Assembly (NCBI GenBank): GCA_030390025.1
Contig: JASTWF010000329.1
Coordinates: 310,001-374,000, forward strand
Source of the DNA: Squalus acanthias
Taxonomy: Eukaryota
Reading direction: 5' to 3'
DNA: 64,000 nt
This document shows, in pieces, positions 9,476 to 64,000 of this stretch. Position numbers and translations under genes: made by a program. How positions within the stretch are numbered: position 1 is the first letter of the stretch; each line of letters opens with the position of its first letter. Below the pieces are notes generated by a model that ran no database searches, was not told the DNA's origin, and worked only from the letters and a program-made list of their open reading frames with translations.

Positions 9476-10134
9476 CTCACGCGGTGCGGAGAGGAGCGGG
9501 CAGATCGGAGGACCTCTCCGTAGGACTGCTCCTGGGCCTGGCCAAAAAAGGCCATCAACTGGTCCAGGCAGCAGGTAGTCGAGGGGGTCGTTCGGCCCAA
9601 TTGCCTGCCACTCTTCCGCGGCCATGTTCGCGCCCGGGTGGCCCTGGAGATGGAGCACGCGGTGTGGGCCGGCACCCTTGAGGCCTTCCGCGACCGGTGG
9701 GCGCCGCGGGGACTGGAGTGCATCATCACCCCGGCCAACCAAATTTTAATTTAATTTCTTAAGGTTCCTTTAAAGTTTTATTAATTTACAGTCAATTTTG
9801 TTTAATCACCCCAATAAAAGAGTACATTCATCTGACTCACTCGGTGCGGAGGGGAGCAGGCAGATCGGAGGACCTCCTCATAGGACTGCTCCTGGGCCTG
9901 GCCAAAAGGCCATTAACTCGTCCAGGCAGCGGGCGGTCGAGGGGGTTGTTCAGCCACGTTTGCGCCCGGGTGGCCCTGGAGATGGAGCACGCGGTGTCCG
10001 CGACCGGTGGGCACCACAGGGACTAAAGTGCATCATCACCCCCGGCAACCAATTTTTAATTTAATTTATTAAGTTTAATTTAATGTATTTTTGTTAAGTT
10101 ACAGTTTATTTGTTTATGGGTTGCTTAAAAAGAG
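9476..10134 (+). mobile_element. Two tandem 5'-truncated Tx1 3' fragments (9476-9822, 9836-10134)
   Basis: Both match the ORF2 C-terminus of the full-length Tx1 (VRRGAGRSEDLLVGLLLGLAKK) and end in aaaagag. A 13-bp repeat, tacactcatctga, occurs at 9463, 9823 and 10135. Confidence 0.88.
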
Positions 10135-10980
10135 TACACTCATCTGAAATTCCTTTGAACCACCCTTTATAGAACTATCTTGTATAAGATTTGCAATCCG
10201 TTATTTTCTGTATCATTTAACCGTTTTTGGATCCGATTTCGTAAAAACTCCTTCACACATACTGCATGTGATCGCCTTTGAAATGTTCTGATCTTTGTCA
10301 TTGTCATTGCTGATTTTGATGGTCGCTTTGATTCAATCTCTTGTTATTAACATACCTTGCACTATTTCTTTAATTGAGATCATTTTTTCTGATACTTCCT
10401 TTATCAGGTCTTTAGCGCCTCCATTGATCCCTTTTAATAATCCTTCATTTGGGTTTAGGGGCTGGGGTTCAGGTTAGGATGTTAGGCTTATGAGACAGTG
10501 ATTAGGGATAGAAACCACTATTGACAACGTCAGTGTCACTAGACATGTTCTCTTTCATTTCATGGTGTTTTAACATCACGCAGATGAGTCAGAAAACAGC
10601 CTCATGAATTGTTCATTCAAAGAACCTTCTTTCTGGCCCGAGCCTGATTTCCTCTCTTCTTTCACATCTCTACATTTGACACAGAAAAAGACATCAGGGT
10701 CATTAGATTTTGGGACAAGAACAGGCGGATCCAGGTGTTGTTCTGGTTACATCCAATCTTCGGCCTGCCTGAAAAGGGCTTCTGACAATAACCTGTCACC
10801 AGGCCCCACCAGTAACCATCTGATTCCAACGTCATATCTTCATCCATTACCTGCCCTCACTGGAGCTGGTTTCACCACCATGACCATTCCCCATACAGAG
10901 GCTCTCTGATTCCCATTTATAGACTCAGTGTAAATGATCCCTGGATTCGGTATCGCAGTGTAAGTCGTCCCTGGATTTGG

Positions 10981-15896: not shown

Positions 15897-17267
15897 GGTA
15901 TTGGAAGAGGAGGATTTGCAGACGGGAAACTGAAACCAAACATCACGTCAAGATCTGACAGAGTCCCTCGATTCCTCAGGACCTGAAATATCATCGGCCT
16001 TTGAATGTGGAAGGAGAAATGTTTGTCTGTTCTGTCTGTGGGAAAAGATTTCCGACATCAGTGTGACTGGAAAAGTACCGAGACACACACCCGACTGAGA
16101 GTGTTCCAGTGCACTGCCTGTCGAAAGAGCTTTAACCAGTTACACAGCCTGAAAAAACACACCATTCACAGCGGGGAGAAACCGTACACGTGTTCTGTGT
16201 GTGGACGAGGCTTCAACTGATCATCCAACCTGGAGAGACACAAGGACACCCACACCACGGAGAAACCGGGGAAATGTGGGGACTGTGGGAAGAGATTCAG
16301 TTCCCCGTCTGAGCTGGAAATTCATTGGCGCAGTCACACTGGGAAGAGACCGTTCACCTGTCCAGTGTGTGGGAAGGGATTCACTCGGTCATCCAACCTG
16401 CTGACACACCAGAGAGGTCACACTGGGGAGAGACCGTTCACCTGCTCTGAGTGTGGGAAGGGATTCACTCGGTCATCCGACCTGCTGAGACACCAGCGAG
16501 TTCACACTGGGGAGAAGCTGTTCACCTGCTCTGTGTGTGGGAAGGGATTCACTTTGTCATCCGACATTCTGAGACAGCAGCGAGTTCACACTAGGGAGAG
16601 GCCATTCACCTGCTCCGAGTGTGGGAAGGGATTCACTCAGTCATTCAGCCTGCTGACACACCAGCGAGTTCACACTGGGGAGAGGCTGTTCACTTGCTCC
16701 ATGTGTGGGAAGGGATTCACTTTGTCATCCGACCTTCTGGCTCACCAGAGAGGTCACACTGGGGAGAGACCATTCACCTGCTCCGTGTGTGGGAAGGGAT
16801 TCACTCAGTCATCCCACCTGCTGATACACCAGCGAGTTCGCACCGGGGAGAGACCGTTCACCTGCTCCGTGTGTGGGAAAGGATTCACTCAGTCATCCCA
16901 CCTTGTAACTCACCAGCGAGTTCACACTGGGGAGAGACCGTTCACCTGCTCTGTGTGTGGGAAGGGATTCAGTCAGTCATTCAACCTGCTGACACACCAG
17001 CGAGTTCACACTGGAGAGAGGTCGTTCACCTGCTCTGTGTGTGGGAAGGGATTCACTTGTTCATCCCACCTTCTAACTCACGAGCGAGTTCACACTGGGG
17101 AGAGACCGTTCACCTGCTCTGAGTGTGGGAAGGGATTCATTCAGTCATCCAGGCTGTTGAGACACCAGCGAGTTCACACTGGGGAGAGACCGTTCACCTG
17201 CTCTGAGTGTGGGAAGGGATTCACTCAGTCATCCACCCTGCTGAGACACCAGCGAGTTCACAAGTGA
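15897..17267 (+). pseudogene. C2H2 zinc-finger gene ZNF-B, probably disrupted
   Basis: Acceptor ttttacag at 15896. An in-frame TGA at 16218-16220 falls inside a finger. About 12 open fingers follow with no ATG directly ahead of them. Confidence 0.75.
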
Positions 17268-18574
17268 CTGCAGGGGTTGGATTCTGATGTTATTGCTGCT
17301 GTTAATCACATCCCAGACTGAATCGTGTCCATTCTGACAGTTGGTGTTTGTTTCTGATGATGTTAATAACCCCTATAACTGGACTGGAGTTTAATATTTT
17401 CATATTTCAAATGACACAGTTTGTCGATATTTGATGTCTCCGAGATAAGAGGAGACTAATTGATGTCCTGTTACCGACTGCTTTATTTTTGGGCCTTTTC
17501 TCCTTTCTAACTCGAGATTATTTCAGTTCTCGTACCTTCGGTTACTCTCAGGGACAAGTCCCAGCTCCCCATCCCTTCCAGAGTGCCTCTCCTAGCCTTG
17601 GTATCCAGGGAAGGTCTCGGTAACACGCCCGGGATCACTAAACACTAAACCCAGTCTGTTAATCACTTTCAGCTGCTGGACTTAGCGTGTGTCCCACAGC
17701 ATCTCTCTCAACTTCGATGTGTGAATAGAGCATCACGCCTGCAAACCTGCTTTCAATTTAAATTTGAATCCACTCAGCAAGTGTATTTGAAAATACGTAC
17801 AAGTAAACAGATCACATTCAAATAATTGGCAAAGGTTTAGAGTCAACAAGATGAACAAGTGAACACATCACGGCCCAATACCCCAGCTCTATATTCACAG
17901 GAGAAAGTCTGTTATCTGACTCCTCGAGTGGACAGAATAGAGAAAGATCCCAACTCTAAGAACATCTAGAATCTGTTGTAAATATCTTTCAAATCCTGAC
18001 TGGTCCAATCTGTCGGTTTCCTTTCAATTGAAGTGAATGGAAGATGAGAGGGGTGTTGGCATATGGACCTCGGTTAATTCAGCTTCTGAAAGGTGTTCAT
18101 GTTTAGTTCATTCGATATCGGGGGAAATGTGGTCGATATCATTAGAGAGAGAGAGAGATTTCACTGAGCAACAGCTGGTGTTTGCAACCAACTGGCCTTG
18201 GATATTTTCATCATAGAATGTTTCGATCAGAAATATGATGTTGGGATAAGAAAAGTCTGGAGACTAGTGGTTTGTGCTGCCCCAGGAAGGCCACAGTGTT
18301 TTTACCTGCTTCTAACGTTGTTGATGTGTGTTGAAGAAAATGCAGACTTGTGTCTCTGGACTGTGCAGTAGCCAGAGATGACCATATTAGGCAATGCCAG
18401 CTCCAGTTTGATAAGAGGTTGATGGCAGAGCAAGAGATCCAGCAGTTTTAAGAATTTATCTCCCGTTATCTGCAGACATCGAATGTCGAAGCGTGCTGAC
18501 AAAATTGGACCTAAGACTTTAACCTATTGGGTTCAATTATTGGGATCGATTGTTACAGAATTGAATTGTTATAG

Positions 18575-28560: not shown

Positions 28561-28759
28561 ACAGCACAACCTTTCAGATCGAGAGACACTGAAAGGATCT
28601 ATCGACACACTGTTATTTGAAATATCAAAATATTAAACTCCAGCCCAGTTATAGGGGTTATTAACATCATCAGAAACAAACCCCAACTGTCAGTGTGAAC
28701 ACGATTCAGTCTGGGATGTGATTAACAGCAGCAATAACAGCAGAATCCAACCACTGCGG

Positions 28760-29457
28760 TTACTTGTGAACTCTCTGGTGTTTCAGCAGGTCAGATGACT
28801 CAGTGAATCCCTTCCCACACACAGAGCAGGTGAACGGCCTCTCCCCAGTGTGAACTCGCTGGTGTGCCAACAGGATGGCTGACCGAGTGAATCCCTTCCC
28901 ACACTCAGAGCAGGTGAACGGTCTCTCCCCGGTGTGAACTCGCTGATGTGTCAGTCGGTCGGATGCCCGAGTGAATCCATTCCCACACTCAGAGCAGGTG
29001 AATTGTCTCACCCCAGTGTGACAGCGCCGATGAATTTCCAGCTCAGATGGGTAACTGAATCCCTTCCCACAGTCCCCACATTTCCCCGGTTTCTCCGTGG
29101 TGCGGGTGTCCTTGTGTCTCTCCAGGTTGGACGATCGGTTGAAGCCTCGTCCACACACAGAACACGTGTACGGTTTCTCCCCGCTGTGAATGGTGCAATG
29201 TTTTTTCAGGCTGTGTAACTGGTTAAAGCTCTTTCCACAGTCAGTGCACTGGAACACTCTCACTCGGGTGTGTGTGTCTCAGTGCTTTTCCAGTCACACT
29301 GATGTTTGAAATCTTTTCCCACAGACAGAACAGACAAACATTTCTCCTTCCACATTCAAAGGCCGATGATATTCAGGTCCTGAGGAATGCAGTGACTCTG
29401 TCAGATCTTCATGTTTCGTTTGAGTTTCCCGTCTGCAAATCCTCCCCTTCTAATATC
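28760..29457 (-). pseudogene. C2H2 zinc-finger gene ZNF-B' (6 open fingers, no in-frame ATG for them)
   Basis: Inverted paralog of ZNF-B. ORF 28760-29263. The upstream degenerate finger has in-frame TGAs. Confidence 0.7.
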
Positions 29458-39599: not shown

Positions 39600-40030
39600 A
39601 TTCAATGGCGGGGCTTTTACCCCGTGAGGGAGAATGTGCCGCACCTCGTCTACAGGATCCTAGTGCGCAGGCGCAGGCCCGACTGGGTTTGGAGCATGCG
39701 CGGTGCATGTCATCCCGGAAGACGGTGGGTGCGGGACAGGTCCGGATAAATTAGTGAGAAGCCGACGGAGGGAGCGGAGTATTGGACGGCAAGTGGGCGG
39801 GGAGGCTTCATAAACAACTAGTGTAGGCCGCAAGCCCCGAATAATAACCTGAAGGTCCCGGGTTTGCAGCTTCGGGGCTTTTCCCGGTCACAGGCCGAGG
39901 ATAACGGCCGCCATCTTGATTCAGTGAGTAACAAAGCGCATGCGCGGTCATCTTGATCAGAATCAAAGAGTGGGCGGGGTTTCCGTAGCTGTTCCCCACC
40001 GGGTCCTATTGCCCGGCGAATGTATTTCAT
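39600..40030 (+). promoter_or_regulatory. CpG-rich promoter of ZNF-A'
   Basis: Inverted paralog of 8690-9100, with gcgcatgcgc and ccgccatcttg. Confidence 0.7.
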
Positions 40031-40046
40031 TGACTCAGTTATTTGA

Positions 40047-40186
40047 GGTATTTTTTCACTTCACCTGACGAAGGAGCAGGGCTCCGAAAGCTTTTGATTT
40101 CAAATAAAACTGTTGGACAAAAGACCTGGTGTTGTGCGACTTCTCATTTTTGTCCACCCCAGTCCAACACCGGCATCTCAGCATCA
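40047..40186 (+). mobile_element. 140-bp hammerhead-bearing mini-element (Penelope-type terminal repeat); unoccupied Tx1 target
   Basis: tcac-CTGACGA-aggagc-agg-gctcc-GAAA-gctt at 40061-40093, followed by AATAAA. 11-bp TSD cagttatttga (40036, 40187). Empty site in the paralog near 8655. Confidence 0.82.
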
Positions 40187-40967: not shown

Positions 40968-41560
40968 TCAGCAACACCGAATGCGGTTCTCAGGCTCCGA
41001 GTCAGAGCCGGTGGGCCCGGGGCAACACCGAGTAGGAACGGCGATACATGCCCAAGTCAGGATAGTGTGTGACTTGGAGGGGAATTGGGAGGTGATGGTG
41101 TTCCCATGCACCTGCTGCCCTTCGAGGTGGTGGAGGTTGCGTGTTTGGGAGGTGCTGTCAAAGTTCTAGTCGAGTTGAAGATATATAAAGTCACTCTTTC
41201 CCTCCTCCCCCTCCCACCTCGCTCTCTCTCCTCCCATAGAGGCCAGAGTCTTGTGTAGGCCCAGACCGGGTGGCGGGTTCCCTTCCCTGAAGGATATTAG
41301 TGAACCAGTTGGGTTTTTACGACATTCCGGCAGCTTTCATGGTCACTTTTTTCTAGTGCCGGCCCCACAAATTCCCAGATTCATTCAACTCAATTTCACA
41401 ACCTGTCTTTGTGTTTTTGTGGGTTCTCTCTCACCCTCCCTTTTTCCTGTTTCAAATTCATTTTACAGGGTGTTAGAAGGGGAGGATTTGCAGACGGGAA
41501 ACTCAAACCAAACCTCACTTCAAGATCTGACAGTCACTCGATTCATCAGGACCTTTGAGC

Positions 41561-42598
41561 ATGGAAGCAGAAAGCACCGTTCAGAGTGGGGAGAAACCGT
41601 ACACATGTTCTGTGTGTGCACAAGGCTTCAGCCGATCCTCTTGCCTGTCGAGACACAAGCGCAGTCACACCGGGGAGAGGCCATTCACCTGCACTGAGTG
41701 TGGGAAGGGATTCACTCAGTCATGCAATCTGCTGCCGCACCGGCGAGTTCACACTGACGAGAGACCTTTTAAATGTCAGGACTGCGGGAAGTGATTTAAA
41801 AGTTCCAGGGAACTGACACTCCATCAACGTGTTCACACTGACGAGAGACCGTTCAGGTGCTCTCATTGCGGGACTGGGTTCAGGCGATCATCTGACCTCA
41901 CTGTACACCAGCGCACTCACACCGGGGAGAGGCCGATCACTTGCTCTTAGTGTGGGAAGGGATTCACTCGGTCATCCCACCTGCTGAGACACCAGCGAGT
42001 TCACACCGGGGAGAGGCCTTTTAAAACACCGGTCTGCGGGAAGTGCTATAAAAGTTCCAGCGAACTGATGTCCCATCAATGTGTCCACAGTGACGAGAGA
42101 CCATTCAGGTGCTCTCACTGCAGGACTGGGTTCAGGCAATCATCTCAACTCACTTTACACCAGCGCACTCACACCGGGGAGAGGCCGTTCACCTGCTCCG
42201 AGTGTGGGAAGGGATTCACTCGGTCATCCGACCTGCTGACACACCAGCGAGTTCACACTGGGGAGAGGCCGTTCACCTGCTCTGAGTGTGGGAAGAGATT
42301 CACTCAGTCATCCCATCTGCTGAAACACCAGCGAGTTCACACTGGGGAGAGACCGTTCACCTGCTCGGAGTGTGGGAAGTGATTCACTCGGTCATCCCAT
42401 CTGCTGAAACACCAGCGAGTTCACACTAGGGAGAGACCGTTCACCTGCTCCGAGTGTGGGAAGGAATTCACTCGGTCATCCGACCTGCTGACACACCAGC
42501 GAGTTCACACTGGGGAGAGGCCGTTCACCTGCTCCAAGTGTGGGAAGGAATTCACTTATTCATCCACCCTGCTGACACACCAGCGAGTTCACAAGTGA
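41561..42598 (+). pseudogene. C2H2 zinc-finger pseudogene ZNF-A' (12 finger units)
   Basis: ATG at 41561 (MEAESTVQ). In-frame stops at 41792, 41948 and 42380. Confidence 0.85.
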
Positions 42599-42984
42599 CT
42601 GCAGGTGTTGGATTCTGATGTTATTGCTGCTGTTAATTACATCCCGGACTGAATCGTTTTCACACTGACAGCTGGGGTTTGTTTCTGCTGATGTTAATAA
42701 CCCCTGTAACTGGGCTGGAGTTTAAATTTCTGGATATCTGTCTAATAAATCAGCTTTGCTTTAATCACATTGTTGTGGATTTTTGTCGTTCCCACCTGAG
42801 TGTTTAGCATCACCTGGCTGGAGCTCAGAAAGGACAATCTGGGGGGAGGATCGTACGGCGGGAACAGAACTTCAGCCTGGACACAGTCCTTCAGGGCCAC
42901 ACTGAGAGGGGCAAACGGCACTTTGGTCTTTCTCGTCTCTCTTCACTGACAGCAAAGTTTTCGGGCAGATTAAGACCATCAGAA

Positions 42985-47066: not shown

Positions 47067-48098
47067 GGTATTGGAAAGGGAGGATTTGAAGAAGGGAAAC
47101 TCAAACCAAATATCAAGTCAAGATCTGACAGCGTCACTCGATTCATTAGGAACTGAATATCATCGGCCTTTGAATGTGGAAGGAGAAATGTTTGTTCTGT
47201 CTGTGGGAAAAGATTTCAAACATCAGTGTGACTGGAAAAGCACCGAGACACACACACCCGAGTGAGAGTGTTCCAGTGCACTGGCTGTGGAAAGTGCTTT
47301 AACCAGTTACACAGCCTGAAAAAACATCGCACCGTTCACAGCGGGGAGAAACCGGACACGTGTTCTGTGTGACGAGGCTTCAACAGATCATCCAACCTGG
47401 AGAGACAAGAGGACACCCGCACCACAGAGAAACCGTGGAAATGTGGGGACTGCGGGAAGGGATTCAGTTACCCGTCCCAGCTGGAAATTCATCAGCGCAG
47501 TCACACCAGGGAGAGGCCGTTCACCTGCTCTGAGTGTGGGAAGGGATTCACTCAGTCATCCGACCTGCTGGCACACCAGCGAGTTCACACCGGGGAGAGG
47601 CCGTTCACTTGCTCAGAGTGTGGGAAGGGATTCACCTGTTCATCCCACCTCCTGAAACACCAGCGAGTTCACACCGGGGAGAGGCCGTTCACCTGCTCCG
47701 AGTGTGGGAAGGGATACACCCGTTCATCCGACCTGCTGATTCACCAGCGAGTTCACACTGGGGAGAGGCCGTTCACCTGCTCCGAGTGTGGGATGGGATT
47801 CACCCGTTCATCACACCTCCTGAAACACTATCGAGTTCACACCGGGGAGAGGCCATTCACCTGCTCCGAGTGTGGGAAGGGATTCACCCGTTCAACCGAC
47901 CTGCTGATTCACCAGCGAGTTCACACTGGGGAGAGGCCGTTCACCTGCTCCGAGTGTGGGAAGGGATTCACTACTTCATCCAGCCTGCTGACACACCAGC
48001 GCGTTCACACTGGGGAGAGGCCATTCCTCTGCTCCGTGTGTGGGAAGGGATTCACTCAGTCATCCAACCTGCTGACACACCATCGAGTTCACAAGTGA
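47067..48098 (+). pseudogene. C2H2 zinc-finger gene ZNF-B'' (8 open 3' fingers, disrupted 5' part)
   Basis: Acceptor tttgcag at 47066. A stop near 47370 arises from a 3-nt deletion. The first in-frame ATG after it is at 47793. Confidence 0.7.
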
Positions 48099-48194
48099 CT
48101 GCAGGGGTTGGATTTTGATATTGCTGCTGTTAATCACTTCCAGGACTGAACCATGATCATTCTGACATTTGAGGTTTGTTTCTGCTGATGTTAT

Positions 48195-49033
48195 TTACCC
48201 CTGTTACTGGGCTGGAGTTCAATATTCTGGATATATGTCGAATAAATCAGCTTTGCATTAAACACATTGTTGTGGATTTTGTCGTTCCCACCTGAGTGTT
48301 TAGCATCACCTGGCTGGAGCTCAGAAAGGACAATCTGGGGGGAGGATCGTACGGCAGGAACAGAACTACAGCCGAGACACAGTCCTTCAGGGCCACACTG
48401 AGAGGGGCAAACAGCACTTTGGTCTTTCTCGTCTCTCTTCACTGACAGTTATGTCCCCGTGCAGGTTAATCTTGAGGCCTGTAAGGAATGTGTCCCAGCC
48501 GCTCTCTCCCATGGGTCAGAGCTCCTAGGCACTGAACAGAAGGCTCCTTTACAACTGAGTTTAGAGTCAGGAAGAACAACGGTGAATGCTGGAAACGTGC
48601 TGTCAAATCAGAGATTGGTGTCAAACTGCGATCTGTTCCTGACTGAAAGTGAAACGGCAAGGTTAAGTTTCCAGTCTCAAATTGACTGGTAATTATTCCA
48701 CGAAGATTTAATATGTGTGTGTGACAGTCCTGAGTCTACCATTTTAAGGCAGGTGTTAGCTCATTTAAAATAAACCCGTTTAAAATAAATTGATTAAAGT
48801 CTGCATTAAAATAACAGAGGGAGGAGTTCACAGGAGCCTGTTAACTGCTGGTACAATTATACAACAGACATATGATTACCAGATAAAGAAGGACCTGCAG
48901 CGTGTTTCCAGGAATTCCCTGTTTTATTGATGTGTGCGTGTTAGACACCAGGATAACTAAAGATACACGACCCTGAACATCCACGGGGTTACTCCAGGAT
49001 CACTCCCGCTGCGGAACTCCACCACTGACCCTG
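48195..49033 (+). repeat. Direct duplicate of ZNF downstream region 42700-42950 plus 43865-44450
   Basis: Long near-identical runs. The CR1 at 42985-43855 is missing from this copy. Confidence 0.85.
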
Positions 49034-49528: not shown

Positions 49529-49632
49529 GATGTGGAGATGCCGGCGTTGGACTGGGGTGGACAAAAATGAGAAGTCGCACAACACCAGGTTATAGTCCAA
49601 CAGTTTTATTTGAAATCACAAGCTTTCGGAGC
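49529..49632 (-). mobile_element. Left part of the hammerhead mini-element interrupted by Tx1 (remainder at 63931-63998)
   Basis: Reverse complement of 40081-40185. Confidence 0.85.
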
Positions 49633-50602
49633 TGCTGACGAAGGAGCAGAAGCAGCAGAGTGGTGGTCTCTGTGAGCAGGAAGAGGAGAAGGAGAAGGAG
49701 ACCAGACAGCAGACCACCACCAACACAACCAACAACCACAACAACTGAGGTGCCTGGAGAGAGAGGACAGGAGAGGAGAGGAGAAAGAAAAAAAGGCCAA
49801 GGCCATCAACAACAGAGGAGAGGCCTTTCCACACTGCCTCCTCAATTGGCCTCCATTTTAGGAGAGGGAGAGAGGGGAGAAAACAACACAACATCATCTG
49901 TTTGGAAGGAGGGAGGAAGGAAAGAACAGCTACAGGTGGGTGTGATTCTGGGGCACTCTCCCAGAGACTTTGTTTTGTAGGTGGGGGGAGGAAAGAAGAA
50001 AAAGAAGAAGGCCGGAACATCCAAGGGGTGTGTGTGTGTGTGGCTTTTGTAAAAGCTAGGCCGCACACACCATATTAAACACCCCTTTCCCATTGCCTGA
50101 CCTGGGACAGCTGGAGCTGCCTAGGTGAAGTCCCCAATTAATTTAATATTATTGGGCATCGTTAAGACCTGGTGCAGGACTGAGCCTGGGCATCTCCAGC
50201 TATCCCAGGTGAAGACATCTTCTCCCCCCACCAGAAGACCACCACCAAAGACTTTTTACATCGGAGAGTGCACCCCCCTGCCAACACCCACCCACCCACC
50301 ATCCTGAGTGGCGACCCTGCCCTTGCGGCTTCCCTCCTTCCCACCCCCCTCTCTCTCTCTCTTTGTCTCTTGTCTCTCTCTGCCTCTCTCTCTAAGAGGC
50401 ACCTCAATTAACTTTTTATTAAGTACCCATTGAGCAGAGGGGAGAAGGCCCCTCTCCTAATTAATTCATAAAAAGGGAGAGGTGTGCCTTCAATTTAAGA
50501 GCTCCCTCTGCTCAGGGGAAAACTAAAACAAAAAAACCGAGGCCATTAACACCTTCAGGCCTGTGACTTGGGGTGAGTGTAGCCCTTAAAGAACCCTCCA
50601 TT

Positions 50603-52756
50603 ATGGCGACCACATCTTCGCCGGTGGCGGGGGCAGCGAGGACATACGCAAGCGTGGCAGCCGCGGCCACGGCCGCAGCCACGAGTCCTCCTGTTACCCC
50701 GTCACCTTTTACCCTCCTTACGAGGAAGAATGGGGTCAAGAGCTACACTCACCCCAACATGACTATAGAGGCGTGTGTAAAAGCCATGGCTGGGGTTGTC
50801 GGCCCTTCAGCCATCGTCGCCGCCTCTAAAATGTACGGCAAGGCTGTGTTCTTCCTGGGGTCGGAGCGGGCGGTGTCCCTGGCCATCGAGAAGGGGCTCA
50901 CCGTGGGCGGGACCTTCCTGCCGGTGGACCCCCTTGAGGCCACCGCGCAAAGGATTGTGGTTTCCAACGTCCCGCCCTTTGTTCCGGGTGAGCTCCTCCT
51001 CCCCCACCTACGTCAACTGGGGGAGGTGAGGTCGGGGATCACACCCATCCCGCTCGGCTTCCGGGAAGCCAGCCTTCGGCACGTCTTCTCCTTCCGGCGC
51101 CAGCTTTTCGTCCGGCTGGCGCGGGAGGAGGACGCGGATGGCGCGTTCACGGTGCTCCACGGGGGGACCGCCCACCGCGTCTTCTGGACCTCGGACGGCG
51201 TGCGGTGCTACGCCTGTAAGGAGGTGGGGCACGTCCGCAAAAACTGCCCCGCCTCCAAGGCCGCCACGACACCTGGCGCGGCCAGGGTTGGCGCCGCCGC
51301 CCCCCCTCCCCCTGATGCTGTCCGCGCGTCGACGGCGACGGATGCGCGGTCGGAATCGGAGGCCAACACCACCACGGCCTCCGGCGGGGAGGAGGGAGAG
51401 CGTCCGGGGGGAAGGAAGGCGCGTAGGAAAAATAAACATCTAAGGGCGGATCCCCTCGTGGAGGAAACATCGGAGTTGACCGAACTCACGCCTGAGTATA
51501 TCGCGGAGTTGGTCGGGACGCATGAGACTGGGGGGGTCCTCGTGCCCGGGCCCGTGACCGTGACCGCAACTGCTGAGGCAGCTAAATCAAGACCTGCGGC
51601 CGGGCTCGGGCCCGAGGGGCCCAAGAAACCCAGTCGTCGGAAGGGGGCAGAGAGGGAGGCCCCAGCAGACATGGAGGCCTCCCCCTCTCCGGGCCCCAAC
51701 TTGTTAAAAAGAAAGCTCCGCCCCCAGCAGGAGGACTGCGAGGAGGAAGGTCCCTCCGCAAAAGGGGGGCAGTCGCCCGCCGCGGGTGCTGCGCCCCACC
51801 CCACCACCGTCATCGTCGCGCGCGATCGGCAGGGGTCGTCTGTCCCTCGGGAGGGTGAGACAGCCGAGTCTGTCCGACCTGTGCCTCCCGGGGATGGGGA
51901 AGAGACCCTGCCCGTGGGGGGGGGGCGCGGAACAACCCGCGGAGGGAAATGTAGTTACGGAACCGTTGCTCCTCGCCGGGTCGGGCGTCCTGGGGACTGG
52001 GGCGGGCGAGGCCAAAGAGGCTGAAGCCGAGCCCGCCTTTTATAACCCAGACATCTCCCAGGGACTGCTCGACCTGGTGGAGGAGTGTAGCAATCCCCAG
52101 CCCGCTGGGTCGGAGGTTGGTGGCGGGGAGACGGAAAGCCCCCTGACTCCGTCTCTGTTGTTGGCGCCGGACGTGCTGGAGGAATTTGGGATTATTTTCT
52201 CCCCGGTTTCTCCGGTCGCCCCGGCGCCTGAGGCGGGGGGGGGCCCCGAACCGCCGCCGCCTCCCGGCCCGGCGCCCCTGAAGGAGCCCAGGGTGGACTC
52301 CTCTGCCACCGATCCTGGGGGTGGGATCGTGACGGAGGCGGGGCCGGCCGGTGCGGCCGAGCCGTTCGCTGCACCCGTGTGACGGACGGGTTGGCCGCCG
52401 GTGACGACCTCCCGGAGGAGGACGGGGACTCGGTGTTGGGCATCGAGGACGATTTGGAGTCCATCGGCAGCGAGGCGATGGACGCCCTCGTGCCCTTCAC
52501 CGACTCTCCCCTCATCCCCGTAGGGGAACTCCGGGATTTTATGGCCATGAGCCAGGGTCGTCACAAGAAGATCCGGCTGGCCCTCGACAAGTGGTCGGAG
52601 CTGGCGCTGCTCGTCGTGTCCGTCCGCGCCGCCGTTAAAATCATGGGCGCGGACAAGGACGTTGGCCGGCTCGAGCTGCGTCGGCTCAAGACGTTCCACA
52701 CTGGGCTGCTGAGGGAGTGGCGGTCGTCAGTGACCGCGCTCCCTCCCCTCCGTTAG
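50603..52756 (+). CDS. Tx1 ORF1 (CCHC zinc knuckle), two frameshifts (~51920 G-run, ~52375)
   Basis: CYACKEVGHVRKNC, with N-terminal ASKMYGKAVFFL and VSNVPPF motifs. Confidence 0.8.
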
Positions 52757-52781
52757 GTAGAGGTTGCACTATGCTTCTGAG

Positions 52782-55700
52782 ATGAAGATAACCATAGCCA
52801 GCCTCAACATCAACGGCAGCAGGGAGGCGCGCCGTAGATTCAATAACTTCTCGGTCCTTCGGGACGGGAAATATGCGGTGTGCTTCCTGCAAGAAACCCA
52901 CACCGTTCCGGGAGACGAGGCCACGTGGCTCCTGGAGTGGCAAGGAGGGGTCAGCATGAGTCACCTCTCAACAATTCCTGCGGGGTGGCTGTCTTGCTGG
53001 CCCCGCATTTTCAGCCGGAGATCTTGAGGGTCAAGGAGCACGTGCCGGGCCGCTTGCTCCAGGTCACTGTTCGCCTGGGAGGCGTGCCGCTCCATTTAGT
53101 GAACGTGTACGCCCCCCGGACCGGTGCGCAGCAAGTGCGCTTCTTCGGAGAAGTGTCCGCTCTTCTGGGCTCCATCGACGTGGGCGAGTGCGTCATCCTC
53201 GGGGGGGATTTCAATTGTACCCTCGAGGCGCGGGACCGGTCGGGTCCCCCGCGAAGCCCGGCGGCGATGGAGAAGTTGCGGGACCTGGTCGGGTCCTTCG
53301 ACTTGGTGGACGTCTGGCGAAATCTCCATCCCGACTCCAGCGCCTTCACGAGCGTGAGGTCTGGAGGAGGAAGGTCCAGAATCGACCGCCTTTACATTTC
53401 CCGGGCGTACGTCTCCTGCGTTCCGGCGGCTTCCATGCGGCCGGTGCCGTGCACGGACCACCACCTGGTGTGGGCGGAGCTCGCTCCGCTGCGCGCGCGG
53501 GGGGGGTCCGCGTACTGGCATTTTAACAACCTGCTGCTGGAGGACGCGCGGTTCCGGGATTCGTTTCGCCGGTTCTGGGCCGACTGGAGAAGGAAGCGGG
53601 GAGGCTTCCCCTCCTTGAGGCTATGGTGGGACGTGGGCAAGGCTCACGTCCGCGTCTTCTGTCAGGAGTACGCGAAGGGGTCGACCAAGAGGCGGGAGGC
53701 CCGGGTCGGGCGATTGGAGAAAGAAGTGCTCGACCTGGAGTCCCGTCTCGGTCAAGTCGTCGAGGACCCGGCCCTGCGGAAGGTGTACGAAGAGAAGAAG
53801 GGCGCGCTGAAGGACCTGCAGCTGGTCGGGTCCCGAGGCGCGTACGTGAGGTCGCGGATCCAGTTCCTGCGGGACCTGGACCGCGGCTCCCCCTTCTTCT
53901 ACTCGCTGGAAAAAAGACGGGGGGTCCGTAAGCAGCTCTTGGGGCTGCTGGCCGACGACGGATCTCTGGTCTCGGATCCGGAGGGCATCAGCGCGGAGGC
54001 CCGGGCCTATTACGGGGCTCTGTTCTCTTCGGATCCGTCCAGCGAGGATGCGCGCAGAGTTTTGTGGGAGGACCTGCCGAAGGTCGGCCCGGAGGGCGCC
54101 GAGAATTTAGAAGCTCCGCTAAGCCTGGCGGAGCTGACCGGCGCCCTGCGCCAGCTCTCGAGGGGCAAGTCCCCGGGGCTGGACGGGCTGACCGTGGAGT
54201 TCCACAGGGCGTTCTGGGACGTCTTGGGGGACGACTACGCGCGGGTCCTGGGGGAAAGTCTGGCGACCGGGGAGATGCCCCTCTCTTGGCGCAGGGCGGT
54301 CATCGTCCTGCTGCCCAAGAAGGGCGATCTCCGCCTACTTAAGAACTGGCGCCCGGTCTCCCTCCTCAGCACGGACTACAAAATTTTCGCCAGGGCTATG
54401 TCTGCTCGCCTTGGCACCGTGCTGGCCCGCATGATCCACCCCGACCAGTCCTACACGGTCCCGGGCCGGAGTATCCACGATAACATCCATCTGGTCCGGG
54501 ACCTGGTCCACCATTCCCAGAGGGCTGGTCTGTCGGTCGCCTTCCTTTCCCTGGATCAGGAGAAGGCGTTCGACAGGGTGGATCACGAGTATCTTTTCGG
54601 GACTCTGCGCGCATTCGGGTTCGGGACGCATTTCGTCGCCCGGATCCGACTTCTGTACGCCGCCGCGGAGTGTCTCATTAAAGTTAACGGGTCTTTGACG
54701 GCGCCCCTTCGCTTCGGGAGGGGGGTGCGTCAGGGATGCCCCATGTCCGGTCAGTTATACGCCGTTTGCGTGGAGCCTTTCCTGCGCCTCTTGCGGAAGA
54801 GGTTGACGGGACTGGCTCTGCAAGGGCCGGGCGTGGAGGTGGTCCTCTCGGCTTACGCCGATGACGTGCTCCTCGCGGTCACGGATCCCGTCGACTTGCG
54901 GAGGATGCGAGAATGCCAGCAGATTTACTCAGACGCATCCTCCGCCAAGATCAACTGGGAGAAATGTTCTGGACTCCTGGTGGGCCCATGGCGGGTGGAC
55001 TCCCTGCCGGAGGAGTTCGGGCCTTTCGCCTGGAGCACCACGCACCTCCTCTACCTGGGAGTCTACCTCAGCCCGGCCGAGGACGCCTGGCCGGCGAACT
55101 GGCAAGAGCTGGAGGCCAAAGTCACCGCTCGCCTAGGGCGCTGGACAGGACTGCTCCGAGTGTTGTCCTACAGGGGTCGAGCGCTGGTCATAAACCAGCT
55201 GGTGGCCGCCATGTTGTGGTACCGGTTGGTCACTTTGATCCCTCCCCCTGCGTTTGTCGCCAAGATGCAGAAGAAGCTCGTCGACTTCTTCTGGGACAAA
55301 AGGAAGCACTGGGTCTCTGCCGCGGTTTTGAGTCTCCCGCTTAGGGAGGGCGGTCAGGCGCTGGTGTGCCTTCGCACCCAGGCGGCGACTTTCCGTCTTC
55401 AGACGCTGCAGAGATACCTGTACGTGGAGAATCCTCCTAGGTGGCGTGCGCTGGCGACGTATTTCTTCCGCCAGCTGCACGGCCTCAATTACGACACGCA
55501 GCTCCTGTTTGTGAGAGTGGGTGGCACGCGTGCCAGCCTGCGGGAGCTGCCTGTCTTCTACCAGGAACTGCTATGGGTTTGGAACAGCGTCGCCTCCGAG
55601 CGCAGTTCTCCCCCGTCAGGAGCGGCGGCCGTCCTTCGGGAGCCGCTGTTCAGGAATCCGCACCTCCACGACCGCGGGTTCGGCTGGCTGGCGGAGGGCA

Positions 55701-56680
55701 GGGCTGTGCCCGGTAAGGTGACCAGAGTCGGGGACCTGCTCGATGGCGGAGGAGCGGGCTGGATGGCGCCGGAGGAGTTGGCGAGGCGCATGTCCTGGGT
55801 CAACGTCCGGCTCGCGGTCAAAGCCATCGAGTCGCTAAAAGTGGCACTGGGCCCCGTCTCCACTAGGTGTGTCGAGGAGGCTCAAGCACGTGGGGCGATC
55901 CCGTCCGAACTGACCCCCGTTCGGACGGAATTCCTTATCGGCGCCCGGCCCCGAATCCTCCCTCGGGAGCCGCCGCCTCACCACTTGAGCCTTCTCGGAG
56001 AAATGCCCTCCGTGCCCTTTCAATCCGCACGGAGGCGTTTCCTGTACGGGCTGCTCCTGCACACTCTCCACTTTGCCATCTTCGTCTGCCGTCCGGACAC
56101 GCCTTGGCGTACCATCCTGCCGTCCGGCGGAGGCGAAGGTCCCCATTGGAAGGCTCTCTACGCGGGAGTCTTCCCTTGTTCTATTGGGGACTTGGCCTGG
56201 AGGGTGTTGCACGGAGCAGTCCCGTGCAATAGGATTTTAAGTAGGTTTACGGACTCCCAGGCTGCTTGCCATTTCTGCGGCCTGGAGGAGTCCGTCTATC
56301 ACATTTATGTTGAGTGTGAGAGGTTGCAGCCCCTCTTTCATTATTTGAAGGGGCTGCTCCTCAATTTCTGGTTGCACTTCAGCCCCACGCTCCTGATCTA
56401 CGGTCACCCGGTGCGGAGGGGAGCGGGTAGGTCGGAGGACCTCCTCGTAGGACTGCTCCTGGGCCTGGCCAAGAAAGCCATTAATTGGTCCAGGCAGCGG
56501 GCGGTCGAGGGGGTCGTTCGGCCCGATTGCCTGCCTCTCTTCCGCGGCCATGTTCGCGCCCGGGTGGCCCTGGAGATGGAGCACGCGGTGTCCGCCGGCA
56601 CGCTTGAGTTTTTCCGCGACCGGTGGGCGCCGCGGGGGCTGGAGTGCATCGTCACCCCGGACTTCCAAATTTTGATTTGA
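52782..56680 (+). CDS. Tx1 ORF2 (APE endonuclease, RT, C-terminal zinc finger), one frameshift at ~52970
   Basis: SLNING, FLQETH, GGDFN, DH; GVRQGCPMS, YADD; CHFC-x8-H-x4-C. Confidence 0.9.
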
Positions 56681-57766
56681 TTTATTAAGTTTCATTTAAA
56701 GTTTTAATTGATTTACAGTAAATTTGTGTTGTCCAACCAAAAAGAGGAACACCAGGTTATAGTCCAACAGTTTTATTTGAAATCACAAGCTTTCAGAGCT
56801 GCTGACGGAGGAGCAGCAGCAGCAGAGTGGTGGTCTCTGTGACCAGGAAGAGGAGAAGGAGACCAGACAGCAGACCACCACCAACAACCAACAACCACTA
56901 CTGAGGTGCCTGGAGAGAGAGGACAGGAGAGGAGAGGGAAAAGAAAGGAAGGCCAAGGCCATTAACAACAGAGGAGAGGCCTTTCCATCACTGCCTCCTC
57001 AATTGGCCTCCATTTTAGGAGAGGGAGAGAGGGGAGAAAACACCAACAAACATCATCTGTTTGGAAGGAGGGAGGAAGGAAAGAAAGAACAGCTACAGGT
57101 GGGTGTGATTTCTGGGGCACTCTCCCAGAGACTTTGTTTTGTAGGTGGGGGGAGGAAAGAAGAAAAGAAGAGGGCCGGAACATCCAAGGGGTGTGTGTGT
57201 GTGTGTGTGGCTTTTGTAAAAGCTAGGCCGCACACACCATATTAAACACCCCTTCCCATTGCCTGACCTGGGACAGCTGGAGCTGCCTAGGTGAAGTCCC
57301 CAATTAATTTAATCTAATTGGGCATCGTTAAGACCTGGTGCAGGACTGAGCCTGGGCATCTCCAGCTATCCCAGGTGAAGACATCTTCTCCCCCCACCAG
57401 AAGACCACCACCAAAGACTTTTATTACATCGGAGAGTGCACTCCCTGCCAACACCCACCCACCCACCATCTTGAGTGGCGACCCTGCCCTTGCGGCTTCC
57501 CTCCTTCCCACCCCCCTCTCTCTCTCTCTTTGTCTCTTGTCTCTCTCTGCCTCTCTCTCTAAGAGGCACCTCAATTACTTTTAATTAAGTACCCATTGAG
57601 CAGAGGGGAGAAGGCCCCTCTCCTAATTAATTCATATAAAGGGAGAGGTGTGCCTTCAATTTAAGAGCTCCCTCTGCTCAGGGGAAAACAAAAACAAAAA
57701 ACCGAGGCCATTAACACCTTCAGGCCTGTGACTTGGGGTGAGTGTAGCCCTTAAAGACCCTCCATT

Positions 57767-59931
57767 ATGGCGAGCACATCTTCGTCGGTGGCGGGGGCAG
57801 CGAGGACGTATGCGAGCGTGGCAGCCGCGGCCACGGCCGCAGCCACGAGTCCTCCTGTTACCCCGTCACCTTTTACCCTCCTTACGAGGAAGAATGGGGT
57901 CAAGAGCTACACTCACCCCAACATGACTATAGAGGCGTGCGTAAAAGCCATGGCTGGGGTTGTCGGCCCTTCAGCCATCGTCGCCGCCTCTAAAATGTAC
58001 GGCAAGGCTGTGTTCTTCCTGGGGTCGGAGCGGGCGGTGTCCCTGGCCATCGAGAAGGGGCTCACCGTGGGCGGGACCTTCCTGCCGGTGGACCCCCTTG
58101 AGGCCACCGCGCAAAGGATTGTGGTTTCCAACGTCCCGCCCTTTGTTCCGGGTGAGCTCCTCCTCCCCCACCTACGTCAACTGGGGGAGGTGAGGTCGGG
58201 GATCACACCCATCCCGCTCGGCTTCCAGGAAGCCAGCCTTCGGCACGTCTTCTCCTTCCGGCGCCAGCTTTTCGTCCGGCTGGCGCGGGAGGAGGACGCG
58301 GACGGCGCGTTCACGGTGCTCCACGGGGGGACCGCCCACCGCGTCTTCTGGACCTCGGACGGCGTGCGGTGCTACGCCTGTAAGGAGGTGGGGCACGTCC
58401 GCAAAAACTGCCCCGCCTCCAAGGCCGCCACGACACCTAGCGCGGCCAGGGCTGGCGCCGCCGCCCCCCCTCCCCCTGATACTGTCCGCGCGTCGAAGGC
58501 GACGGATGCGCGGTCGAAATCGGAGGCCAACACCATCACGGCCTCCAGCGGGGAGGAGGGAGAGCGTCCGGGGGGAAGGAAGGCGCTTAGAAAGAATAAA
58601 CACCTAAGGGCGGATCCCCTCGCGGAGGAAACATCCGATTTGACAGAACTCACGCCCGAGTACATCGCGGAGTTGATCGGGACGCGGGAGACGGGGGGGG
58701 TCCTCGTGCCCGGGCCCGTGACTGTGACCGCAACTGCCAAGGCAGCTAAATCAAGACCTGCGGCCGGGCTCGGGCCCGAGGGGCCCAAGAAACCCAGTCA
58801 TCGGAAGGGGGCAGAGGGGGAGGCCCCAGCAGACATGGAGGCCTCCCCCTCTCCGGGCCCCAATATGTTAAAAAGGAAGCTCGACCCCCAGGAGGAGGAC
58901 TGCGAGGAGGAAGGTCCCTCCGCAGAAGGGGAGTCGTCGCCCGCCGCGGGTACTGCGCCCCACCCCACCACCGTCATCGTCGCGCGCGAGCGGCAGGGGT
59001 CGCCTGTCCCTCGGGAGGGTGAGACAGCCGAGTCTGTCCGACCTGTGCCTCCCGGGGATGGGGAAGAGACCCTGCCCGTGGGGGGGGGGCGCGGAACAAC
59101 CCGCGGATATTAATATTAATAATAAAAATCCAGAACCGTTGCTCCTCGCCGGGTCGGGCGTCCTGGGGACTGGGGCGGGCGAGGCCAAAGAGGCTGAAGC
59201 CGAGCCCGCCTTTTACAACCCAGATATCTCCCAGGGACTGCTCGACCTGGTGGAGGAGTATAACAATCCCCAGCCCGCTGGGTCGGAGGTTGGTGGCGGG
59301 GAGACAGAAAGCCCCCTGACTCCGTCTCTGATGTTGGCGCCGGACGTACTGGAGGACTTTGAGATTATTTTCTCCCCGGTTTCTCCGGTCGCTCCGGCGC
59401 CTGAGGCGGGGGGGGGGCCCCGAACCGCCGCCGCCTCCCGGCCCGGCGCCCCTGAAGGAGCCCAGGGTGGACTCCTCTGCCACCGATCCTGGGGGTGGGA
59501 TCGTGACGGAGGCGGGGCCGGCCGGTGCGGCCGAGCCGTTCGCTGCACTCCGTGCGACGGACGGGTTGACCGCCGGTGACGACCTCCCGGAGGAGGACGG
59601 GGACTCGGTGTTGGGCACCGAGGACGATTTGGAGTCCATCGGCGGCGAGGTGATGGACGCCCTCGTGCCCTTCACCGACTCTCCCCTCATCCCCGTAGGG
59701 GAACTCCGGGATTTTATGGCCACGAGCCAGGGTCGTCACAAGAAGATCCGGCTGGCCCTCGACAAGTGGTCGGAGCTGGCGCTGCTCGTCGTGTCCGTCC
59801 GCGCCGCCGTTAAAATCATGGGCGCGGACAAGGACGTTGGCCGGCTCGAGCTGCGTCGGCTCAAGAGTTTCCACACTGGGCTGCTGAGGGAGTGGCGGTC
59901 GTCAGTGACCGCGCTCCCTCCCCTCCGTTAG
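57767..59931 (+). CDS. Tx1 ORF1, copy 2, frameshifts in two G-runs (~59085, ~59412)
   Basis: Same motifs as copy 1. Confidence 0.8.
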
Positions 59932-59956
59932 GTAGAGGTTGCACTATGCTTCTGAG

Positions 59957-62900
59957 ATGAAGATAACCATAGCCAGCCTCAACATCAACGGCAGCAGGGA
60001 GGCGCGCCGTAGATTCAATAACTTCTCGGTCCTTCGGGACGGGAAATATGCGGTGTGCTTCCTGCAAGAAACCCACACCGTTCCGGGAGACGAGGCCACG
60101 TGGCTCCTGGAGTGGCAAGGAGGGGTCAGCATGAGTCACCTCTCAACAATTCCTGCGGGGTGGCTGTCTTGCTGGCCCCGCATTTTCAGCCGGAGATCTT
60201 GAGGGTCAAGGAGCACGTGCCGGGCCGCTTGCTCCAGGTCACTGTTCGCCTGGGAGGCGTGCCGCTCCATTTAGTGAACGTGTACGCCCCCCGGACCGGT
60301 GCGCAGCAAGTGCGCTTCTTCGGAGAAGTGTCCGCTCTTCTGGGCTCCATCGACGTGGGCGAGTGCGTCATCCTCGGGGGGGATTTCAATTGTACCCTCG
60401 AGGCGCGGGACCGGTCGGGTCCCCCGCGAAGCCCGGCGGCGATGGAGAAGTTGCGGGACCTGGTCGGGTCCTTCGACTTGGTGGACGTCTGGCGAAATCT
60501 CCATCCCGACTCCAGCGCCTTCACGAGCGTGAGGTCTGGAGGAGGAAGGTCCAGAATCGACCGCCTTTACATTTCCCGGGCGTACGTCTCCTGCGTTCCG
60601 GCGGCTTCCATGCGGCCGGTGCCGTGCACGGACCACCACCTGGTGTGGGCAGAGCTCGCTCCGCTGCGCGCGCGGGGGGGGTCCGCGTACTGGCATTTTA
60701 ACAACCTGCTGCTGGAGGACGCGCGGTTCCGGGATTCGTTTCGCCGGTTCTGGGCCGACTGGAGAAGGAAGCGGGGAGGCTTCCCCTCCTTGAGGCTATG
60801 GTGGGACGTGGGCAAGGCTCACGTCCGCGTCTTCTGTCAGGAGTACGCGAAGGGGTCGACCAAGAGGCGGGAGGCCCGGGTCGGGCGATTGGAGAAAGAA
60901 GTGCTCGACCTGGAGTCCCGTCTCGGTCAAGTCGTCGAGGACCCGGCCCTGCGGAAGGTGTACGAAGAGAAGAAGGGCGCGCTGAAGGACCTGCAGCTGG
61001 TCGGGTCCCGAGGCGCGTACGTGAGGTCGCGGATCCAGTTCCTGCGGGACCTGGACCGCGGCTCCCCCTTCTTCTACTCGCTGGAAAAAAGACGGGGGGT
61101 CCGTAAGCAGCTCTTGGGGCTGCTGGCCGACGACGGATCTCTGGTCTCGGATCCGGAGGGCATCAGCGCGGAGGCCCGGGCCTATTACGGGGCTCTGTTC
61201 TCTTCGGATCCGTCCAGCGAGGATGCGCGCAGAGTTTTGTGGGAGGACCTGCCGAAGGTCGGCCCGGAGGGCGCCGAGAATTTAGAAGCTCCGCTAAGCC
61301 TGGCGGAGCTGACCGGCGCCCTGCGCCAGCTCTCGAGGGGCAAGTCCCCGGGGCTGGACGGGCTGACCGTGGAGTTCCACAGGGCGTTCTGGGACGTCTT
61401 GGGGGACGACTACGTGCGGGTCCTGGGGGAAAGTCTGGCGACCGGGGAGATGCCCCTCTCTTGGCGCAGGGCGGTCATCGTCCTGCTGCCCAAGAAGGGC
61501 GATCTCCGCCTACTTAAGAACTGGCGCCCGGTCTCCCTCCTCAGCACGGACTACAAAATTTTCGCCAGGGCTATGTCTGCTCGCCTTGGCACCGTGCTGG
61601 CCCGCATGATCCACCCCGACCAGTCCTACACGGTCCCGGGCCGGACAATCCACGACAACATCCATCTGGTCCGGGACCTGGTCCACCATTCCCAGAGGGC
61701 TGGTCTGTCGGTCGCCTTCCTTTCCCTGGATCAGGAGAAGGCGTTCGACAGGGTGGATCACGAGTATCTTTTCGGGACTCTGCGCGCATTCGGGTTCGGG
61801 ACGCATTTCGTCGCCCGGATCCGACTTCTGTACGCCGCCGCGGAGTGTCTGATTAAAGTTAACGGGTCTTTGACGGCGCCCCTTCGCTTCGGGAGGGGGG
61901 TGCGTCAGGGATGCCCCATGTCCGGTCAGTTATACGCCGTTTGCGTGGAGCCTTTCCTGCGCCTCTTGCGGAAGAGGTTGACGGGACTGGCTCTGCAAGG
62001 GCCGGGCGTGGAGGTGGTCCTCTCGGCTTACGCCGATGACGTGCTCCTCGCGGTCACGGATCCCGTCGACTTGCGGAGGATGCGAGAATGCCAGCAGATT
62101 TACTCGGACGCATCCTCCGCCAAGATCAACTGGGAGAAATGTTCTGGACTCCTGGTGGGCCCATGGCAGGTGGACTCCCTGCCGGAGGAGTTCGGGCCTT
62201 TCGCCTGGAGCACCACGCACCTCCTCTACCTGGGAGTCTACCTCAGCCCGGCCGAGGACGCCTGGCCGGCGAACTGGCAAGAGCTGGAGGCCAAAGTCAC
62301 CGCTCGCCTAGGGCGCTGGACAGGACTGCTCCGAGTGCTGTCCTACAGGGGTCGAGCGCTGGTCATAAACCAGCTGGTGGCCGCCATGTTGTGGTACCGG
62401 TTGGTCACTTTGATCCCTCCCCCTGCGTTTGTCGCCAAGATGCAGAAGAAGCTCGTCGACTTCTTCTGGGACAAAAGGAAGCACTGGGTCTCTGCCGCGG
62501 TTTTGAGTCTCCCGCTTAGGGAGGGCGGTCAGGCGCTGGTGTGCCTTCGCACCCAGGCGGCGACTTTCCGTCTTCAGACGCTGCAGAGATACCTGTACGT
62601 GGAGAATCCTCCTAGGTGGCGTGCGCTGGCGACGTATTTCTTCCGCCAGCTGCACGGCCTCAATTACGACACGCAGCTCCTGTTTGTGAGAGTGGGTGGC
62701 ACGCGTGCCAGCCTGCGGGAGCTGCCTGTCTTCTACCAGGAACTGCTATGGGTTTGGAACAGCGTCGCCTCCGAGCGCAGTTCTCCCCCGTCAGGAGCGG
62801 CGGCCGTCCTTCGGGAGCCGCTGTTCAGGAATCCGCACCTCCACGACCGCGGGTTCGGCTGGCTGGCGGAGGGCAGGGCTGTGCCCGGTAAGGTGACCAG

Positions 62901-63855
62901 AGTCGGGGACCTGCTCGATGGCGGAGGAGCGGGCTGGATGGCGCCGGAGGAGTTGGCGAGGCGCATGTCCTGGGTCAACGTCCGGCTCGCGGTCAAAGCC
63001 ATCGAGTCGCTAAAAGTGGCACTGGGCCCCGTCTCCACTAGGTGTGTCGAGGAGGCTCAAGCACGTGGGGCGATCCCGTCCGAACTGACCCCCGTTCGGA
63101 CGGAATTCCTTATCGGCGCCCGGCCCCGAATCCTCCCTCGGGAGCCGCCGCCTCACCACTTGAGCCTTCTCGGAGAAATGCCCTCCGTGCCCTTTCAATC
63201 CGCACGGAGGCGTTTCCTGTACGGGCTGCTCCTGCACACTCTCCACTTTGCCATCTTCGTCTGCCGTCCGGACACGCCTTGGCGTACCATCCTGCCGTCC
63301 GGCGGAGGCGAAGGTCCCCATTGGAAGGCTCTCTACGCGGGAGTCTTCCCTTGTTCTATTGGGGACTTGGCCTGGAGGGTGTTGCACGGAGCAGTCCCGT
63401 GCAATAGGATTTTAAGTAGGTTTACGGACTCCCAGGCTGCTTGCCATTTCTGCGGCCTGGAGGAGTCCGTCTATCACATTTATATTGAGTGTGAGAGGTT
63501 GCAGCCCCTCTTTCATTATTTGAAGGGGCTGCTCCTCAATTTCTGGTTGCACTTCAGCCCCACGCTCCTGATCTACGGTCACCCGGTGCGGAGGGGAGCG
63601 GGTAGGTCGGAGGACCTCCTCGTAGGACTGCTCCTGGGCCTGGCCAAGAAAGCCATTAATTGGTCCAGGCAGCGGGCGGTCGAGGGGGTCGTTCGGCCCG
63701 ATTGCCTGCCTCTCTTCCGCGGCCATGTTCGCGCCCGGGTGGCCCTGGAGATGGAGCACGCGGTGTCCGCCGGCACGCTTGAGTTTTTCCGCGACCGGTG
63801 GGCGCCGCGGGGGCTGGAGTGCATCGTCACCCCGGACTTCCAAATTTTGATTTGA
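59957..63855 (+). CDS. Tx1 ORF2, copy 2, same frameshift at ~60145
   Basis: Only four amino-acid differences from copy 1 spotted by eye in the 1266-aa frame. Confidence 0.9.
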
Positions 63856-64000
63856 TTTATTAAGTTTCATTTCAAGTTTTAATTGATTTACAGTAAATTT
63901 GGTTTTTTTTTTTGTCCAACCAAAAAGAGGAACACCAGGTTATAGTCCAACAGTTTTCTTTGAAATCACAAGCTTTCGGAGCGCTGTTCCTTCGTCAGAC

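Follow-up and report, generated by a model that had tools for sequence, protein, structure and literature searches.

The two Tx1-type LINE copies found in the window (the whole 64,000-nucleotide stretch of Squalus acanthias DNA that was analysed) begin with a short inverted piece of the target repeat into which they are inserted. This 15-mer is interpreted, with moderate confidence, as the terminal part of a 69-nt leader that has been inherited, the fossil 5' junction of one founder insertion formed by snap-back synthesis or template switching. The earlier note on this DNA had suggested that the 15-mer was either a template-jump scar or a built-in target-complementary sequence that could aid recognition or 5' joining, and part of each suggestion stood. 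The scar-like origin is supported by a target piece from the opposite strand and by microhomology at both switches, but the scar does not appear to be remade at each insertion from the local target. The sequence does appear to be built in, being present in both copies and probably in most of the family, but nothing positive was found for a role in recognition or joining.

Anatomy of the 5' junction

The anatomy of the leader and the pattern of its mismatches can be read directly from the alignments (Table 1). The leader consists of target +1 to +52 in forward orientation, a 2-nt link and inverted target +68 to +54, fused to the CAG tract. Both copies open with TG before the 15-mer (at 49633 and in copy 2), as had been observed earlier, and comparison within the window bore out that the sequence at 40065-40079 is the same as the 15-mer at 49635-49649, which also agrees with the minus strand of 63984-63998 at 14 of 15 positions. 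The idea that it matches the element's own target needs correcting, however: the one disagreement with 63984-63998 comes from a change private to the local target, so that it is the target consensus which the 15-mer matches. The 15-mer of copy 2 has one mismatch, an A to G change with which a wobble pair is still possible.

Table 1 Features of the LINE copies, their leaders and the target repeat. Positions are those of the window; target numbering (+) starts at the 3' joint
Feature	Position	Strand	Remarks
Uninterrupted target repeat	40060..40185	+	CUGAnGA at 40065, stem II, GAAA, AATAAA further down
Native upstream target half, presumed Penelope-type tail, antisense to LINE	49529..49580	-	49529-49632 is 93% identical over 105 nt to 40081-40185
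Target +1..+52 in front of copy 1	49581..49632	+	Recurs at 56748-56799 and 63931-63982
TG link	49633..49634	+	Makes CTGCTG (49632-49637), proposed left switch point
Inverted target +68..+54	49635..49649	+	Predicted hammerhead CUGAnGA core plus stem II 5' strand, in sense
CAG tract, LINE UTR start	49645..49658	+	AGCAG 49645-49649 common with inverted target, proposed right switch point
Tx1-type LINE copy 1	49633..56747	+	ORF1 from 50603 (zinc knuckle); ORF2 ATG 52782 to 56680 (APE, RT, zf-RVT); frameshifted
Copy 2 leader	56748..56816	+	Target copy, TG, inverted 15-mer 56802-56816; 2 changes vs copy 1
Tx1-type LINE copy 2	56800..63930	+	97.8% identical to copy 1, patchy divergence
Native downstream target +1..+70	63931..64000	-	Predicted hammerhead motif (minus strand); +28 and +57 carry private changes

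The 15-mer has the layout CTG + 9 nt + CAG and the forward likeness to the target extends to 49637 if one extra T is allowed, so that only about 7-10 nt are unambiguously inverted. The element is preceded by target +1 to +52, a T and GCTG (corresponding to +53 to +56), the CTG of which doubles as the start of the inverted piece; at this left switch the target has GCTG at +53 to +56 where the element has TGCTG. The last five letters of the inverted piece, AGCAG, double as the start of the UTR CAG tract. With CTG/CAG microhomology at both switch points, the inverted 15-mer can be described as a spacer of 9 nt that has been turned around where it lies between CTG and CAG.

When the first 30 nt of the element were compared with the other strand of the target, the longest match was 15 nt, whereas it did not exceed 11 nt in 880 other windows of the same UTR or in 20,000 random 30-mers drawn with the composition of the UTR. 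A chance origin of the match was therefore ruled out.

The target repeat and its hammerhead motif

The target repeat occurs in the window only as tails of about 110-150 nt. Its hammerhead cores at 40065-40089 are separated by a spacer of about 14 nt with a 5-bp stem, and an extra A follows the first core. The Penelope-type hammerhead descriptor, in the portion of the source used here, places the CUGAnGA and GAAA cores at a distance of 7-17 nt and includes stem II (PMC8557442), and the target repeat shows this core spacing and stem II layout. The 15-mer contains the CUGAnGA core and the 5' strand of stem II of this predicted motif, in agreement with its earlier description as the 5' half of a hammerhead. 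No Rfam hammerhead matched in the window at the gathering score, and none matched at E up to 10 on 40030-40140. On the motif layout, we take the target tails to be putatively of Penelope type.

Two further CUGAnGA...GAAA motifs, at 33500 and 37393, are alike and differ in sequence type from the target repeat; they possibly represent a second hammerhead-bearing repeat. On both strands of the window there are also arrays that repeat every 84 bp (about 5000-6500, 16100-17400, 28600-29200, 41500-42900 and 47300-48200), which would fit C2H2 zinc-finger repeats, whose period this is.

The LINE copies

Judged from their predicted proteins, the elements are Tx1-type LINEs, with APE, RT and a C-terminal zinc region in ORF2 and a CCHC motif in ORF1. 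The Pfam domains Exo_endo_phos and RVT_1 were above the cut-off in ORF2 and zf-RVT below it, and zf-CCHC was above the cut-off in the ORF1 of both copies. The best near-full-length named match of ORF2 was X. laevis TX1 (149 kDa protein, 50% identity over 96%), and the most identical partial named matches were from a shark (74%) and a ray (69%), which points to a cartilaginous fish as host. The copies are arranged head-to-tail and their 3' ends lie at the same base. A 7-nt likeness between the 3' tail of the element and the target was not significant (p 0.06).

ORF1 is frameshifted in both copies. A frameshift in the endonuclease region of ORF2, at about 52960-52980 and 60135-60155, is also common to both, with no homopolymer of 5 or more nearby; the lineage may have been defective and mobilised in trans, one copy may have been converted by the other, or the error may be one that both share. 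The copies differ at 47 of 750 positions in mid-ORF1 and at 10 of 3834 in ORF2 (Fisher p 3e-28). Within conserved coding parts, a region picked afterwards, 10 of the 18 differences were synonymous (p 0.009), and tests of dN/dS over whole ORFs were not significant (ORF1 p 0.15, ORF2 p 0.10). The patchy divergence together with the synonymous excess makes the copies look like separate source lineages, whereas, given the shared frameshift, the few ORF2 differences may be due to conversion or to a single defective source and may understate their age. The leaders of the two copies differ at 2 positions, compared with 1.3 expected at the UTR rate.

A very stable three-way-junction hairpin is kept in the 5' UTR of both copies (50099-50215 and 57265-57381), with minimum free energies of -67.7 and -70.2 kcal/mol and z scores of -8.6 and -7.5, respectively. 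It matched no Rfam family at the gathering score, and is a better candidate for a functional RNA than the 15-mer.

Probable inheritance of the leader

The private changes at +28 and +57 in the native right-hand target are carried by neither leader, and the letter of the leader at +57 agrees with the target loose ends in all four public runs. Since the leaders lack the private changes of the local target, the 15-mer probably arose elsewhere. The chance that both target changes arose late was estimated as 0.014, 0.07 and 0.39 at 0.26%, 0.64% and 2% decay, respectively, and the conclusion that the scar was not made at the insertion where it is found is probable, at moderate strength.

Contigs from four runs (of 20 listed), designated organisms A to D, were compared with 49530-49930. 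If contigs started at 49645, the depth of 49642-49655 relative to the next bin would be expected to be 0.79. The ratio was 0.97 in organism B, which is above this value and suggests that the UTR runs on into the 15-mer there. It was 0.71 in organism A, where it is uninformative, and 0.79 in organism C, which is represented by one contig with no bridging; 49642-49795 was not covered in organism D. Among the listed variants none reached 4% at 49633-49675, among the listed loose ends of organisms A and B there was no alternative 5' end, and among the 32 pieces listed, of a set with 15,701 further ones, none bridged the junction. Depth continuity and the listed loose ends make it likely that the 15-mer is present family-wide. 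Target +57 to +68 was unchanged in all four runs, so that there was nothing with which the 15-mer could covary.

In at least three contigs (two from organism A and one from organism C) the match begins at 49645, so that the 15-mer is without its first 10 nt. In one organism A contig 15 other letters stand between target +12 and the match from 49645, the second has 8 unmatched letters before 49645, and the organism C contig has a longer CAG-type run there. All three alternative 5' ends break at the CAG microhomology at 49645. Absence of the 15-mer from full-length copies elsewhere had been named in the earlier note as evidence against its proposal; these three contigs, with other letters in place of its first 10 nt (one of them joined to target +12), count in part against that proposal, and both copies in the window have the 15-mer. 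The other listed joint connects target +11 to 49865.

At least eight organism A contigs match as far as 49649 and then enter the rest of the sense hammerhead, not the LINE UTR. They may be either real fold-back loci or library chimeras.

Pattern scans of metagenome contigs and prokaryote genomes gave no matches, a scan of viral contigs gave one unrelated chance match, and ORF2 scans of prokaryote and viral contigs gave no confirmed relative.

Length of the target-site duplication

A sister Tx1 family is represented at 9467-10150 by two 3' fragments in tandem, which are 89% and 74% identical to the present family. They start near the same internal point, and a repeat of about 14 nt of a different target lies between them. 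From this repeat and the two listed joints at target +11 and +12, the true stagger of the cuts, and hence the target-site duplication, would probably be about 11-15 nt. The 52-bp repeat that had been described as a duplication is real, but with a stagger near 11-15 nt it is probably not a true target-site duplication and would be mostly element-borne leader. Long target-site duplications can, in other words, be carried by the element.

Proposed origin of the leader and alternatives

In the founder insertion, the cDNA end would have stopped in the CAG tract, annealed through AGCAG with the bottom strand in the downstream target and copied about 10 nt, after which a switch via CTG/CAG to the top strand would have allowed the target to be copied back towards the nick (snap-back). 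The founder copy may then have been transcribed with its flank, by 5' transduction or by read-through in tandem arrays, and the flank-bearing transcript would have founded the present lineage, fixing the junction as the 5' end of the family. In its descendants the forward part of the leader could anneal the cDNA to an overhang of about 11-15 nt, by which the joints would become seamless and look like a 52-bp duplication, and, to judge from the R1A and R2 precedents, could rebuild the target for a tandem insertion. The inverted part would be carried along with no function needed. We infer the strand switches, the founder event and the RNA's 5' end, the founder from one junction, and the organism A contigs that enter the whole sense hammerhead (at least eight) are not predicted by a founder snap-back.

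These contigs would be expected if the inversion was made not by the LINE but by a Penelope-like element, with inverted and direct truncated copies, into whose antisense arm the founder Tx1 was inserted with the AGCAG joint 15 nt into the sense arm, the structure then being inherited as neutral sequence. They continue past 49649 into the sense hammerhead as an empty site would, and inverted 5'-truncated partners are described as usual for Penelope in the available text of PMC8557442. However, the agreement of the contigs was only 0.78, and library chimeras or fold-backs at the 15-nt shared stretch would look alike. Such a capture also requires that the top strand end some 69 nt away from the nick, and does not account for the CTG/CAG switch points being exactly symmetrical, and it is considered unlikely. 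An inversion in place, by which a founder carrying forward +1 to +68 had 9 nt flipped between CTG and CAG through a template switch during DNA replication, fits the position of the inverted spacer, which is still at its original place between CTG and CAG, and short template switches commonly belong to the class in which the spacer only is inverted, according to the part of 10.1101/038380 that was available. As it needs a separate 68-nt capture beforehand and does not account for the coincidence of the right breakpoint with the joint between target and element, it is thought very unlikely. The lowest probability is given to a scar copied from the local target beside a true 52-bp duplication, either at each insertion or once here with subsequent tandem duplication. 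Extra 5' nucleotides copied from the flank are reported to be common for LINEs (PMC4245944, as far as available), and the shared ORF2 frameshift would allow a common recent origin of both copies, but both leaders lack the two private local-target changes, the junctions are base-identical in the two copies, the divergence between the copies is patchy and not uniform, and the joints at +11 and +12 point to a short stagger.

The inverted part showed no sign of function and is most likely a neutral fossil junction. No stem II/GAAA partner for a cis hammerhead was found within 400 nt, no Rfam ribozyme family matched the leader at E up to 10, and a home-made descriptor of an HDV-like fold, used with no positive control, gave no matches in the element RNA. 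A split hammerhead acting in trans was rejected, as no stem I can be formed by the bases that precede the core.

A bridge-RNA-like two-strand guide would be expected to pair with both of its segments at once in a structured loop, and to covary with its target. Simultaneous pairing of both segments is not indicated here: if the forward part of the leader paired with the bottom (primer) strand and the 15-mer with top strand +54 to +68, a stretch of 16 bp would need to be bridged by the 2-nt link (about 54 Å against about 20 Å by a rough estimate), and folding of the leader was no better than that of shuffled sequences (z +1.0). A functional guide or clamp of this kind, or a variant in which the cDNA end invades at +54 to +68 and so aids target choice or 5' joining, is regarded as distinctly unlikely, even though both copies, and apparently organism B, have retained the 15-mer, it agrees with the target where the target varies least, and wobble pairing is still allowed after the A to G change in copy 2. 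The 5' RNA end of R1A has been suggested to direct top-strand cleavage (PMC2718515, available part), but target choice in the Tx1 clade is attributed to the endonuclease in the part of PMC4494074 at hand. In addition, one contig contains a near-full-length copy with neither leader nor 15-mer in the same target at +12, some 40 bp separate the pairing site from the place where the top strand is inferred to be cut, and neither a cis hammerhead nor an HDV-like fold was found in the searches above. Slightly less probable again is the fuller version, a two-part RNA guide in an APE-type retrotransposon, acquired by a junction accident and kept by selection, with 52 nt on the primer strand and 15 nt on the top-strand hammerhead core, helped by extrusion of the target hairpin, or else a cDNA clamp. 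If true, a guide would bear on programmable RNA-based gene insertion; the present evidence points elsewhere.

Comparison with known systems

In the literature searched, which included few subscription papers and no supplements, no description was found of an inherited inverted piece of downstream target at a LINE 5' end. Nor was there one of Tx1 with a hammerhead or of target-complementary 5' ends, and none of the papers listed on Tx1 with sharks or Penelope dealt with such a piece to judge by title or the opening of the abstract, in a search that Repbase reports lay largely outside. Tx1 is not mentioned in the available part of a retrozyme preprint (10.64898/2026.07.22.740005).

If the preferred reading of the leader as an inherited founder junction is correct, the frozen junction preserves, in nature, the trace of snap-back synthesis on target DNA, a LINE integration step otherwise seen mainly in engineered R2 insertions. 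Avian R2 insertions have snap-back 5' junctions with opposite-strand sequence that sometimes comes from nearby target DNA (PMC11204384, as far as available), and here, too, an opposite-strand piece of nearby target lies between the upstream target and the 5' end of the insert. Unlike the R2 snap-backs, which are one-off, engineered and associated with a restriction-like endonuclease, the present junction is apparently fixed in an APE-type family and inherited, and the R2-type feature of having been made at the insertion where it is found was, at moderate strength, not recovered. Short-range template-switch inversions likewise have a short spacer inverted between small inverted repeats (10.1101/038380, available part); they are known from genomic DNA replication, whereas here one breakpoint is the joint of a retroelement.

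Inherited target sequence at the 5' end has been described for melanogaster-type R1A, which carries 28S target sequence, with 'insertion site rearrangements' (PMC2718515), and R2 RNAs are cleaved upstream in 28S (PMC3774820), both according to the parts of these sources available. The R1A and R2 tag is upstream target in forward orientation, whereas the present leader is derived from downstream of the nick, with 52 nt ending in an inverted piece, and unlike in R2 the searches gave no ribozyme by which the RNA end would be defined. The presence of members with and without a leader at one target offers a ready comparison for the effect of 5' target sequence on joining.

Within the Tx1 clade, the accessible text of PMC4494074 describes Tx1L of Xenopus laevis in Tx1D, and the crocodilian Tx1-Mar and SINEU. 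As in these systems, another transposon serves as the target and insertions are in tandem, and as in SINEU-2B a target-derived 5' extension appears to have been inherited from a master copy. Unlike Tx1L and SINEU as described in that text, the present family has a presumed Penelope-type tail with a hammerhead motif as its target, and no inverted piece of target is described in that text.
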